From Escherichia coli (GTDB taxonomy: Bacteria; Pseudomonadota; Gammaproteobacteria; Enterobacterales; Enterobacteriaceae): DNA of 64,000 nucleotides. Location of the stretch: the NCBI RefSeq assembly GCF_003334305.1, contig NZ_QOWS01000016.1. The stretch is one strand, 5' to 3'. Under the pieces are notes generated by a model, which saw only the letters and a list, made by a program, of their open reading frames with translations, was not told the origin of the DNA and made no database searches. This document shows, in pieces, positions 58,883 through 60,541 of the stretch. The first letter of the stretch is position 1. The number at the start of each line of letters is the position of its first letter. The position numbers and the translations under genes are program-made.

Positions 58883-60541
58883 ATGATTCTTGAGCGCGTT
58901 GAAATTGTGGGTTTTCGCGGTATCAACCGTTTGTCGTTGATGCTGGAACAAAACAACGTCCTGATTGGGGAGAACGCGTGGGGTAAATCCAGCTTGCTGG
59001 ACGCCTTAACCCTGCTGCTATCGCCAGAATCAGATCTCTACCATTTTGAGCGCGACGATTTCTGGTTCCCGCCGGGAGATATCAACGGGCGAGAACATCA
59101 TCTGCATATTATTTTGACCTTCCGCGAATCGCTGCCAGGCCGACATCGGGTTCGCCGTTATCGGCCGCTGGAAGCGTGCTGGACGCCATGCACCGATGGC
59201 TATCACCGTATTTTTTATCGTCTGGAAGGGGAGAGTGCGGAAGACGGCAGCGTGATGACACTGCGCAGTTTTCTCGATAAAGACGGACATCCGATTGATG
59301 TCGAGGATATTAACGATCAGGCACGCCATCTGGTGCGTTTAATGCCGGTGCTGCGCTTGCGTGATGCCCGTTTTATGCGCCGTATTCGTAACGGCACGGT
59401 GCCAAATGTTCCCAATGTGGAAGTCACCGCGCGCCAGCTCGATTTCCTCGCCCGTGAGTTGTCCTCACATCCGCAAAATCTCTCTGATGGACAGATTCGT
59501 CAGGGACTTTCCGCAATGGTGCAGTTGCTTGAGCATTATTTCTCTGAGCAGGGGGCTGGACAGGCGCGATATCGTTTAATGCGGCGGCGGGCCAGCAATG
59601 AGCAACGAAGCTGGCGCTATCTGGACATCATCAACCGGATGATTGACCGACCTGGAGGGCGCTCGTATCGGGTTATTTTGCTCGGCCTGTTTGCTACTTT
59701 ATTGCAGGCAAAAGGCACATTGAGACTGGATAAAGACGCGCGTCCGTTATTGCTAATTGAAGATCCAGAAACCCGCCTGCATCCGATTATGCTTTCCGTT
59801 GCCTGGCATCTGTTGAATCTTTTGCCTTTACAGCGTATTGCTACCACCAACTCTGGCGAGCTGCTTTCGTTAACTCCAGTGGAACATGTTTGCCGCCTGG
59901 TGCGTGAATCTTCTCGTGTTGCCGCCTGGCGTCTGGGGCCAAGTGGCTTGAGCACCGAAGACAGCCGCCGCATCTCTTTTCACATTCGTTTTAATCGTCC
60001 GTCATCGCTGTTTGCTCGCTGCTGGTTGCTGGTGGAAGGGGAAACGGAAACCTGGGTTATCAATGAACTGGCGCGTCAGTGCGGACATCATTTTGATGCC
60101 GAAGGGATCAAGGTCATTGAGTTTGCCCAGTCCGGGCTAAAGCCACTGGTTAAATTTGCCCGCCGAATGGGGATTGAATGGCATGTACTGGTCGATGGCG
60201 ATGAAGCAGGGAAGAAATATGCCGCTACGGTACGCAGCCTGTTGAATAACGATCGGGAAGCCGAACGAGAACATTTAACGGCGTTACCGGCGCTGGATAT
60301 GGAACATTTTATGTATCGCCAGGGATTTTCCGATGTGTTCCACCGCGTGGCGCAAATCCCGGAAAATGTACCGATGAATCTGCGCAAAATTATCTCGAAA
60401 GCGATCCATCGCTCTTCCAAACCCGATCTTGCCATTGAAGTGGCAATGGAGGCCGGACGTCGTGGTGTGGACTCCGTACCGACGCTGCTGAAAAAAATGT
60501 TCTCACGCGTGCTGTGGCTGGCGCGCGGTCGCGCGGATTAA
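58883..60541 (+). CDS. ybjD: OLD-family protein: N-terminal ABC-type ATPase plus C-terminal Toprim nuclease domain
   Basis: 552 aa; Walker A GENAWGKSS, Walker B LLLIEDPE; C-terminal Toprim signatures LVEGETE and VLVDGDEAG. Confidence 0.85.
   Translation: MILERVEIVGFRGINRLSLMLEQNNVLIGENAWGKSSLLDALTLLLSPESDLYHFERDDFWFPPGDINGREHHLHIILTFRESLPGRHRVRRYRPLEACWTPCTDGYHRIFYRLEGESAEDGSVMTLRSFLDKDGHPIDVEDINDQARHLVRLMPVLRLRDARFMRRIRNGTVPNVPNVEVTARQLDFLARELSSHPQNLSDGQIRQGLSAMVQLLEHYFSEQGAGQARYRLMRRRASNEQRSWRYLDIINRMIDRPGGRSYRVILLGLFATLLQAKGTLRLDKDARPLLLIEDPETRLHPIMLSVAWHLLNLLPLQRIATTNSGELLSLTPVEHVCRLVRESSRVAAWRLGPSGLSTEDSRRISFHIRFNRPSSLFARCWLLVEGETETWVINELARQCGHHFDAEGIKVIEFAQSGLKPLVKFARRMGIEWHVLVDGDEAGKKYAATVRSLLNNDREAEREHLTALPALDMEHFMYRQGFSDVFHRVAQIPENVPMNLRKIISKAIHRSSKPDLAIEVAMEAGRRGVDSVPTLLKKMFSRVLWLARGRAD

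Follow-up and report, generated by a model that had tools for sequence, protein, structure and literature searches.

Between positions 58,883 and 60,541 of a 64,000-nucleotide stretch of Escherichia coli DNA (contig NZ_QOWS01000016.1), here called the window, lies ybjD, also named oldB, which encodes a 552-residue protein of the OLD family. An earlier note, made from the sequence alone, had picked the gene out as a stand-alone OLD, a reading that is correct and was already known from the literature. Comparative analysis adds that ybjD belongs to the core genome, is inherited vertically and is under strong purifying selection, and that its product, by its sequence a relative of the Gabija nuclease GajA, combines a strictly conserved Walker A motif and nuclease site with ATP-hydrolysis motifs that have decayed. 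The window protein is the product of the same gene as K-12 YbjD (b0876), having 552 amino acids, K35, the same neighbours and a Toprim domain from about residue 378. Positions 58400-60700 of the window match several E. coli chromosomes at 100% identity, and the annotation of the gene there reads ybjD, 'ATP-dependent endonuclease'.

The ybjD locus and its inheritance

The gene is flanked by the divergent aqpZ and the convergent ybjX, and the features of the locus are these:

58883..60541, + strand: ybjD (oldB) coding sequence, 552 amino acids plus stop, ATG start; from the list of open reading frames (ORFs), the E. coli annotation and the Pfam domains DUF2813 and OLD-like_TOPRIM
58874..58878, + strand: Shine-Dalgarno sequence GGAGG, 4 nt 5' of the ATG, near-invariant between genera
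58836-58843 (hexamer 58838..58843), + strand: -10-like hexamer TATACT with G[C/T] in front, about 40 nt upstream of the ybjD ATG
60538..60541, no strand assigned: TTAA, in which the stop codons of ybjD and ybjX overlap tail to tail, from the sequence
60538-61494, - strand: ybjX (VirK/YbjX family), the convergent neighbour of ybjD

The setting described in the earlier note holds in each particular. The ORF list agrees that ybjD converges with ybjX, the stop codons overlapping at 60538-60541, and the pair appears among published convergent excludons (PMC12288877). The AT-rich upstream region said to be common to ybjD and aqpZ measures the claimed 425 bp (58458-58882) at a GC content of 0.35-0.38; the gene body, at 0.50-0.56, is like its surroundings. 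The gene was also described as standing alone, and no helicase or GajB-like gene was found in the whole window by tblastn with three GajB proteins, nor did any PADLOC defence model match a protein neighbouring ybjD, ybjX included.

In 5425 of 5426 complete E. coli genomes ybjD is present, as a single copy in each. A scan of a single genome for each species turned up relatives in 166 species, and the best 80, which were examined closely, are all Enterobacteriaceae with a full-length YbjD (550-552 amino acids, 80-99% identical). The order lysO-aqpZ-ybjD-(ybjX)-macA is retained in essentially all 80 loci, with aqpZ lost at several, as in Salmonella diarizonae. Outside Escherichia the identity of YbjD is 80-91%, on par with that of its core neighbours LysO, AqpZ and MacA. 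More distant full-length orthologs occur in Yersinia (65%), Proteus (56%), Aeromonas (46%) and Vibrio, Salinivibrio and Photobacterium (40-43%); these came from 'plasmid' records of 0.5-5 Mb that were taken, by size and gene content, as mislabelled chromosomes or chromids. Yersinia holds the entire poxB-hcr-hcp-lysO-ybjD-ybjX-macAB-cspD-clpSA block and Proteus holds lysO-ybjD-macA, with ybjX absent, and in both the divergence of YbjD is in step with that of LysO and MacA. In Vibrio and Salinivibrio the ortholog sits alone among unrelated housekeeping genes. The trees of this study were built by neighbour joining from modest samples; the order obtained, Enterobacteriaceae, Yersinia, Proteus and then Aeromonas with the Vibrionaceae, follows the species tree.

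Purifying selection on both domains is very strong. Over 81 Enterobacteriaceae sequences, 290 of the 552 positions are invariant, every nuclease residue among them. Synonymous divergence (dS) between genera is saturated (>1), so nonsynonymous divergence (dN) alone was used at that depth: the dN of ybjD is 0.06-0.15, as in its neighbours, with lower values for the Toprim half (0.03-0.09) than for the ATPase half (0.07-0.17). The ratio omega, taken from pairs within Escherichia with a dS of 0.22-0.72, comes to 0.009-0.026 for the whole gene and is as low in one half as in the other. By comparison, ybjX is a patchy, fast-evolving gene wedged amid core genes whose dN is 0.06-0.15. It was undetected at 18 of the 80 loci (Klebsiella, Raoultella, some Enterobacter and others) and, where found outside Escherichia, is 46-76% identical with a dN of 0.24-0.50, an evolution 3-5 times faster.

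Mobile elements scarcely carry the gene. A tblastn search of 50,697 phage records returned only P2 old (28%, partial) and one fragment. Among 2.9 million viral contigs there were two matches, one being E. coli chromosomal DNA and the second a true Gabija system (contig L091). The former is a 24-kb IMG/VR 'viral' contig (IMGVR_UViG_2534681697_000018) with a 100% identical ybjD, which is E. coli chromosome or an overrun prophage call; similarly, two PHROG families turn out to match these chromosomal genes: phrog_4747 scores 391 bits with YbjD and phrog_35383 scores 507 bits with YbjX. In the plasmid collection, among the near-full-length matches listed at 40% identity or more, all but one lie on records of 0.04-5 Mb, whose E. 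coli gene context and multi-megabase sizes suggest chromosomes, chromids or chromosomal fragments. The exception is on the Serratia proteamaculans MOBP/MPF_I conjugative plasmid NZ_MT039179, where, at approximately 6001-9784, a ybjD 5'-truncated to start from residue 52, unannotated as a coding sequence, travels with ybjX and macA and adjoins type IV pilus genes; the plasmid appears to have captured a piece of the chromosomal ybjD locus. The plasmid matches listed below 40% identity are mostly partial, distant OLD relatives that align at the Walker B-to-DxD core only. A phage or plasmid origin of ybjD was rejected on its near-absence from the phage records, viral contigs and true plasmids searched. 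Typical defence genes are patchy, horizontally transferred and found in defence islands or on mobile elements, a pattern from which ybjD departs. Because of its distribution, synteny, omega and near-absence from mobile elements, ybjD is thus to be regarded as a vertically inherited core gene and not as a typical defence gene.

Upstream of the gene, G[C/T]TATACT is the same in 11 of 12 enterobacterial genera, while the remainder of the 425-bp spacer is unalignable, and no conserved -35 sequence was seen alongside it in the 12 genera compared. This pattern makes TATACT a probable ybjD promoter element. The CTATACT form, found in most genera, resembles an RpoS-type -10 element. A simple consensus scan upstream of ybjD found no LexA site, no other recognisable regulator site and no full sigma-70 promoter. 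The aqpZ-ybjD spacer has itself been used as a neutral integration site for the lambda int-xis cassettes of lesion-tolerance strains (PMC9203016).

Elsewhere in the window, the lysO-aqpZ spacer (57447-57625) holds inverted and direct repeats of about 60% GC, for example CAAAATCGCCGAGGCG / CGCAGCGGCGATTTTG, which are REP-like in appearance. Rfam found the small RNA RybB at 30409-30487 (-) with 105 bits and naRNA4/CssrE at 43162-43242 (+) with 78.5 bits, and no other RNA family above threshold across the whole window. No tRNA genes were detected in the window.

Domain plan and kinship of YbjD

The protein was described in the earlier note as an ABC-type ATPase joined to a Toprim domain, of the OLD family and akin to P2 Old and GajA, and profiles, sequence searches of the PDB and an AlphaFold model all concur. 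All four motifs quoted there can be read in the protein sequence: GENAWGKSS (residues 29-37), LLLIEDPE (289-296), LVEGETE (383-389) and VLVDGDEAG (435-443). Placed on the window, the domains and motifs of YbjD are as follows, where the YbjD clade means YbjD and its orthologs:

58883..60007, + strand: N-terminal ABC-type nucleotide-binding domain, DUF2813 with inserted helices, residues 1-375 (Pfam PF11398, E 3.5e-160)
58967..58993, + strand: Walker A / P-loop GENAWGKSS (K35); G29, E30, N31, W33, G34, K35 and S37 invariant from E. coli to the Vibrionaceae
59645..59674, + strand: ABC signature position, degenerate, RPGGRSYRVI; unconserved in the YbjD clade
59747..59785, + strand: Walker B and D-loop LLLIEDPETRLHP (E293, D294, H300); E293, P295, E296, R298, L299, H300 and P301 invariant
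59843..59854, + strand: H-loop position TTNS, with Asn323 for His; T321, T322, N323 and S324 invariant in the YbjD clade
60008..60538, + strand: C-terminal nuclease region, a Toprim fold with C-terminal helices, residues 376-552 (PF20469, E 7.8e-16; predicted local distance difference test score, pLDDT, 85-94)
60035..60049, + strand: Toprim glutamates EGETE (E385, E387, E389), invariant; E385 aligns with the catalytic E379 of Bacillus cereus GajA (BcGajA)
60194..60202, + strand: Toprim DxD, D438-G-D440, invariant
60296..60307, + strand: second metal-site motif D472-M-E474-H475; D472, E474 and H475 invariant in the YbjD clade, D[IL]EH in the GajA clade
60419..60424, + strand: K513-P514, candidate catalytic lysine in the C-terminal helices; invariant in the YbjD clade, SKP in 15/15 GajA sister sequences

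Further residues invariant from E. coli to the Vibrionaceae are G386, T388, E413 and G439, and K35 of YbjD aligns with K35 of BcGajA. The general patterns of the two Walker motifs, GxxxxGK[ST] at residues 29-36 and hhhhED at 289-294, show little or no variation among the orthologs. The profile search proposed as a check of the OLD reading matched DUF2813 and OLD-like_TOPRIM (the latter at residues 376-440, E 7.8e-16), so an OLD fold is present, with AAA_15, AAA_21, AAA_23 and SMC_N also matching at the N-terminus. Among PADLOC models the best is the GajA model PDLC00094 (7e-80, 267 bits), many further GajA models match, and the P2-type Old model follows at 2e-24. A true PDLC00094 member scores 757 bits against the 267 of YbjD, by which measure YbjD is a relative of this GajA family and not a typical member. 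NCBIfam gave sub-threshold P-loop matches only and no equivalog, its retron Eco8 effector model covering just the P-loop of YbjD (20.5 bits, cut-off 250). A search of PDB sequences with an ortholog profile found B. cereus GajA (5e-15) and Thermus scotoductus OLD (2.5e-12).

Structure prediction, also proposed as a check, gave a concordant answer. An AlphaFold2 model from an 18-sequence alignment has a mean pLDDT of 79.8 and a predicted TM-score (pTM) of 0.76; the beta/alpha core of the N-terminal domain is confident, the inserted helices at about residues 160-290 are of low confidence, and the interdomain geometry and the insertion domain are uncertain. In a Foldseek comparison with the PDB the best matches were GajA chains, 8sm3_A (E 2.7e-19) and the ATP-bound 8x5i_B (TM 0.59), with GajA TM-scores of 0.55-0.59. 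They were followed by T. scotoductus (Ts) OLD (6p74, TM 0.44), then retron Eco8 OLD, and then PtuA and SMC heads; the top group of GajA, Ts OLD and retron Eco8 OLD spans E values of 1e-19 to 1e-13. The motifs and the predicted fold show YbjD as an ABC-type P-loop domain with a putative GajA-type Toprim nuclease site that is intact.

The closest non-orthologous relatives found are GajA proteins of the DUF2813 type. One of these, on the viral contig L091 (L091:3503-5212), is 31% identical to YbjD end to end (BLASTP E 1e-80), scores 757 bits with PDLC00094, overlaps a GajB helicase gene (L091:5212-7128; PDLC00114, 882 bits) and has HmaC upstream. Its homologs carry PF11398 and PF20469 and have a scattered distribution, with members in Acidobacteria, Nitrospira, Pirellulales, Dehalococcoidia and Betaproteobacteria. 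At each of the five loci examined, a gene for a UvrD-family helicase comes next and overlaps that of the GajA protein, often with restriction-modification, GmrSD or PLD-SNF2 genes close by. No GajB homolog was found at 86 YbjD loci by tblastn with three GajB proteins.

In the earlier note YbjD was classed as a Class 1-like, single-gene OLD. That assignment stands for the gene context, which is isolated and is the ground of the published Class 1 label (PMC6755086, PMC13261556), and gives way at the level of sequence, where YbjD is far nearer to the GajA subfamily than to P2 Old. The alignment of the YbjD and GajA clades by hhalign has a probability of 100% and an E of 2.5e-93 over 532 columns; that with P2 Old covers only residues 258-456 (E 2.4e-6; BLASTP 28% over 198 amino acids), a core of 193-198 aligned residues. 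By region, identity to GajA and to P2 Old, respectively, is 34% and 26% (residues 1-95), 20% and 14% (96-260), 32% and 23% (261-375) and 46% and 22% (376-552). Since the end-to-end alignments and the regional identities to GajA exceed those to P2 Old, YbjD is best described, as far as alignment can tell, as Class 1 by context and GajA-like by descent. In Class 1 proteins a catalytic Arg or Lys lies some 7 residues after the S/D-x-E metal-B motif, and a separate lysine of the helical domain is lacking (Schiltz 2020). In the alignment of YbjD, the seventh position after E474 is an invariant glycine (G481) and R479 varies (R, K, Q, A, N, F), with the invariant K513 lying 39 residues after E474, which points to the Class 2/GajA arrangement rather than that of Class 1. 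The analogues of K513 are K562 of Bp OLD (PMC6755086) and K541 of BcGajA (PMC8136825), by analogy with which K513 would be the catalytic lysine. For Class 2, or Gabija, YbjD matches the GajA profile and lacks the tandem helicase; for Class 3, the retron effectors, there is no reverse transcriptase among the annotated neighbours of ybjD and no retron RNA family at Rfam gathering thresholds in the window, with nothing near ybjD.

Among 1.84 billion cluster representatives (clusters at 50% identity), 1979 relatives were found, 763 of them at E <= 1e-10 and 335 at E <= 1e-30. In a neighbour-joining tree of 148 leaves with P2 Old as the outgroup, the YbjD side takes in 129 of the 147 ingroup leaves (18 orthologs and 111 top-ranked representatives), a fraction that does not measure clade size, as the leaves (18 YbjD orthologs, 15 GajA and the top-ranked representatives) were chosen by the authors. 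A clade of its own is made up of the 15 GajA sequences linked to a helicase. All five distant YbjD-side representatives with informative contexts are solo among housekeeping genes; the context sample is small, at five GajA-type and five distant solo loci plus the 86 ortholog loci. One of these solo genes, of 634 amino acids (L097:4001-5905), is a single case lying between cysS and the ribonucleotide reductase genes nrdAB, a suggestive neighbourhood for a putative nucleotide-sensing nuclease. Fourteen representatives of 784-1867 amino acids (P0269, P0282-P0285, P0295 and others) hold a YbjD-type core inside a longer protein, with Asn at the H-loop position, intact Toprim residues and the DUF2813 match split in two. 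The sole context seen for this long form, also one of the five, is that of a 1482-residue expanded protein (L098:4001-8449), encoded by a solo gene adjoining an MscK-like channel gene.

It is in the ATPase motifs that the two clades part. In the GajA sister clade the ABC signature reads HGAGTQS, in P2 Old it reads FGHGTQR, and in the YbjD clade an unconserved stretch takes its place. At the H-loop, YbjD has Asn323 where BcGajA has STH320S, P2 Old STH332S, Ts OLD H310 and the DUF2813 GajA proteins ATHS. At the position of the catalytic Glu that follows the Walker B acid, YbjD has Asp294, and Proteus Asn, against EE in GajA and DE in P2 Old. Among 112 full-length representatives, Asn stands at the H-loop position in 70 and Asp at position 294 in 65. 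Most leaves on the YbjD side of the tree are without the H-loop His, and the few representatives there that have it sat on short contigs, uninformative as to a helicase. The nuclease residues, on the other hand, are all common to the YbjD and GajA clades. A competent ABC ATPase is marked by a catalytic Glu, an H-loop His and an LSGGQ-like signature, and none of the three is found in the YbjD clade. Read in this way, its motifs for ATP hydrolysis are decayed, and Walker A and the predicted nuclease site strictly conserved.

A proposed nucleotide-gated nuclease and its rivals

YbjD served some years ago as the query for collecting OLD homologs, in a study that put E. coli in Class 1, with an isolated gene (Schiltz 2019, PMC6755086). 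In the earlier note no function was known to be assigned, a statement overtaken by Atahualpa et al. (MicroPubl Biol, May 2026), who studied the gene directly, reported anti-phage phenotypes on overexpression and proposed the name oldB (PMC13261556). In their hands the Keio ybjD knockout left phage sensitivity unchanged, and a panel of 68 BASEL phages revealed no measurable protection at native expression; expression was detected by reverse transcription quantitative PCR (RT-qPCR). Expression from pBAD at a non-toxic inducer level lowered the plating of Bas18 and Bas20 and reduced the plaque size of Bas64-68. Deletion of the ATPase domain abolished this effect, K35A kept it with higher toxicity, and YbjD expression, unlike that of P2 Old, did not kill a recBC(ts) strain (PMC13261556). 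A table of changed expression in uropathogenic E. coli exposed to a cathelicidin-derived peptide, in the portion available, gives ybjD a value of 1.31, beside arn and mar genes (PMC6737244).

The reading favoured here, held tentatively and with a little less than even confidence, is that YbjD would be a nucleotide-gated nuclease switch resembling GajA. The N-terminal domain probably still binds ATP, because Walker A is invariant, and would not form a hydrolysing ATP-sandwich dimer, because the catalytic Glu is replaced by Asp and the H-loop His by Asn and the signature is lost. From ATP binding without hydrolysis it would follow that this domain acts as a nucleotide-sensing and probably DNA-sensing, oligomerising switch, as in GajA, and that the P-loop domain controls the oligomeric state of a two-metal Toprim nickase and access to it. 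ATP-bound YbjD, including its putative nickase or nuclease, would be held inactive, and loss of the nucleotide or an aberrant DNA ligand would free its activity. When the protein is overproduced, the sensor domain alone suffices to hinder a few phages, and the conserved nuclease would serve a native task outside the assays used so far, since there is no protection at native level, the sensor alone is enough and the nuclease is conserved. On this reading, the extreme conservation of the predicted nuclease site shows natural use in a setting not yet assayed, be it immunity or host DNA maintenance.

The model for this mechanism is BcGajA, which does not hydrolyse ATP and whose nicking is shut off by physiological concentrations of nucleoside triphosphates (PMC8136825). 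There H320A partly relieves the nucleotide inhibition, E379A, D511A and K541A kill the nuclease, and the C-terminal region alone is inactive (PMC8136825); ATP binding keeps the Toprim domain of GajA closed (summarised in PMC12796447). The published toxicity of YbjD K35A is consistent with an activity unleashed by lost nucleotide binding.

Several points weigh against a gated nuclease. Neither point mutations in the Toprim domain nor its full deletion (construct 1-377) altered the behaviour of the protein from that of the wild type, so that the only known phenotypes give no direct evidence of nuclease action in vivo (PMC13261556). The ATP binding, the lack of hydrolysis and the nuclease activity of YbjD are all read from motifs, and K513 is nominated as the catalytic lysine by its conservation. 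Asp or Asn at catalytic positions sometimes still permits slow hydrolysis. In BcGajA, moreover, K35A left ATP inhibition unaffected, which makes the parallel with K35A of YbjD imperfect.

The main rival to the nucleotide-gated mechanism, possible although we hold it doubtful, is a housekeeping role. YbjD would then be a domesticated OLD, the bacterial analogue of archaeal Cran1, acting as a nickase in chromosome or DNA maintenance or in stress, and its anti-phage effects would be a by-product of overexpression. Much of the comparative record fits such a role: near-universal presence in E. coli, a full-length gene at an unchanged locus in all 80 Enterobacteriaceae species examined as well as in Yersinia and Proteus, divergence equal to that of LysO, AqpZ and MacA, a gene tree that tracks the species tree, an omega of 0.01-0.03, a position outside defence islands and the near-absence from phage records, viral contigs and, at full length, true plasmids. 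Cran1 is itself a precedent for a vertically inherited, non-defence OLD (PMC12796447). Yet the gene is not essential, as the Keio knockout attests, and has no growth or repair phenotype on record, the nearest relatives outside its clade are defence proteins, and the phage phenotypes are phage-specific and arise at a non-toxic inducer level (PMC13261556). It is improbable that YbjD is instead half of a split system, with ybjX or a host superfamily 1 (SF1) helicase (UvrD, Rep or HelD) replacing GajB, even though the sister clade is always paired with a UvrD-like helicase (five loci) and ybjX lies tail-to-tail with overlapping stops in a reported excludon. Against it, ybjX is undetected at 18 of 80 Enterobacteriaceae loci, Klebsiella and Raoultella among them, is absent at the Proteus ybjD locus and, outside Escherichia, is far less conserved than ybjD (46-76% versus 80-91% identity), and the Vibrio and Salinivibrio orthologs have unrelated neighbours. 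On the loci where it was undetected, its faster evolution and its failure to match any defence model, ybjX was rejected as the partner of ybjD.

P2 Old, the archetypal single-gene OLD (PMC10568477), has the same overall domain plan and, according to a recent report, senses DNA structures and then cleaves tRNA (10.64898/2026.07.10.737580). That YbjD is likewise an abortive-infection tRNase, firing on RecBCD inhibition or aberrant DNA ends, is nonetheless very improbable: it is non-lethal in recBC(ts), where P2 Old is lethal (PMC13261556), overall identity is about 20% with the Walker B-to-DxD core alone aligning, the spacing from D/E-x-E to the lysine is 39 residues as against 7 in P2 Old, and the ATPase motifs that P2 Old needs (H332, Walker B) are changed (PMC7049728). 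The lost helicase partner, the degenerate ATPase motifs and the knockout without a phenotype might equally describe a functionless, decaying remnant of Gabija, but this reading is scarcely credible and is refuted by the selection data: the ORFs are intact at 550-552 amino acids in 80 of 80 Enterobacteriaceae species examined, omega is 0.01-0.03, the 290 invariant residues include every nuclease residue, and expression is detected by RT-qPCR (PMC13261556).

A wider proposal for the family is offered as speculation, and is rather unlikely to hold in full. Among the DUF2813 OLD nucleases, YbjD-type proteins would make up a large branch without a helicase, with ybjD as its E. coli member. The branch would go back to an ancestor resembling Gabija that was domesticated into a host gene passed on vertically. 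An ATP-binding, non-hydrolysing domain would gate a strictly conserved Toprim nickase, which would act in chromosomal DNA maintenance or in stress, perhaps together with an SF1 helicase of the host in trans, and phage restriction would be no more than a side effect.

Comparison with known OLD systems

The DUF2813-type GajA proteins share with YbjD the PF11398 and PF20469 domains, the Toprim residues, the D-x-E-H motif and the distal S-K-P lysine, at 31% identity end to end and 46% in the nuclease half. They differ in having an overlapping UvrD-type helicase, in their patchy occurrence in defence islands as opposed to vertical inheritance at a fixed core locus, and in retaining the signature, the H-loop His and the catalytic Glu, all three of which are changed in YbjD. 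B. cereus GajA (8SM3, 8X5I) is the best structural match and the best PDB profile match and, as an ATP-binding, non-hydrolysing, nucleotide-inhibited nickase (PMC8136825), exemplifies the mechanism proposed for YbjD. Identity in structural alignments is, however, only 13-16%, and BcGajA, unlike YbjD, retains H320 and requires GajB for defence. Overexpression of YbjD is mildly toxic, whereas that of GajA is reported to be non-toxic.

P2 Old resembles YbjD as a single gene for an ABC ATPase with Toprim, and the Walker A, Walker B, D-loop His and Toprim E/DxD positions align. Unlike YbjD, it is phage-borne, has a canonical signature and H-loop, carries its catalytic Lys 7 residues after D-x-E, and is a recBC-lethal protein that cleaves tRNA (PMC13261556 for the recBC comparison). 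The OLD proteins of Thermus scotoductus (6P74) and Vibrio cholerae (Vc) are Class 1 and, like ybjD, come from stand-alone genes, with a two-metal Toprim site. Ts OLD is a significant match to YbjD in sequence and fold, though its TM of 0.44 is below that of GajA, and it differs in hydrolysing ATP, in its H-loop H310 and in having R487 seven residues after E480 (PMC7049728); the defence provided by Vc OLD depends on its ATPase motifs (PMC12392090). Cran1, a Class 5 OLD of the Sulfolobales, resembles YbjD in being conserved, vertically inherited and apparently non-defence, and its overexpression is harmful via the ATPase domain (PMC12796447), a further likeness. It is, on the other hand, archaeal, essential and cell-cycle regulated, with an active ATPase, whereas ybjD is dispensable in the laboratory.

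The GajA-like affinity, the vertical inheritance, the selection regime and the degenerate ATPase motifs are absent from the readable text of PMC13261556 and PMC6755086 and are, to that extent, new here. They recast the sole published experiment as one on a helicase-less GajA relative in which the hallmarks of ATP hydrolysis are gone and the nuclease site is immaculate, preserved by strong purifying selection in three or more orders of Gammaproteobacteria. Because the Toprim domain is dispensable for it, the overexpression phenotype probably reports something other than the native function. Few core genes of E. coli remain, like this one, wholly uncharacterised, and the single-gene OLDs are the least understood branch of a major family of defence nucleases. 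On the comparative results, ybjD is an instance, of moderate interest, of a defence-type nuclease that became fixed in the core genome, one that bears on how a defence module may be turned into a core gene and on what role a nucleotide-sensing nickase would have in the uninfected cell.

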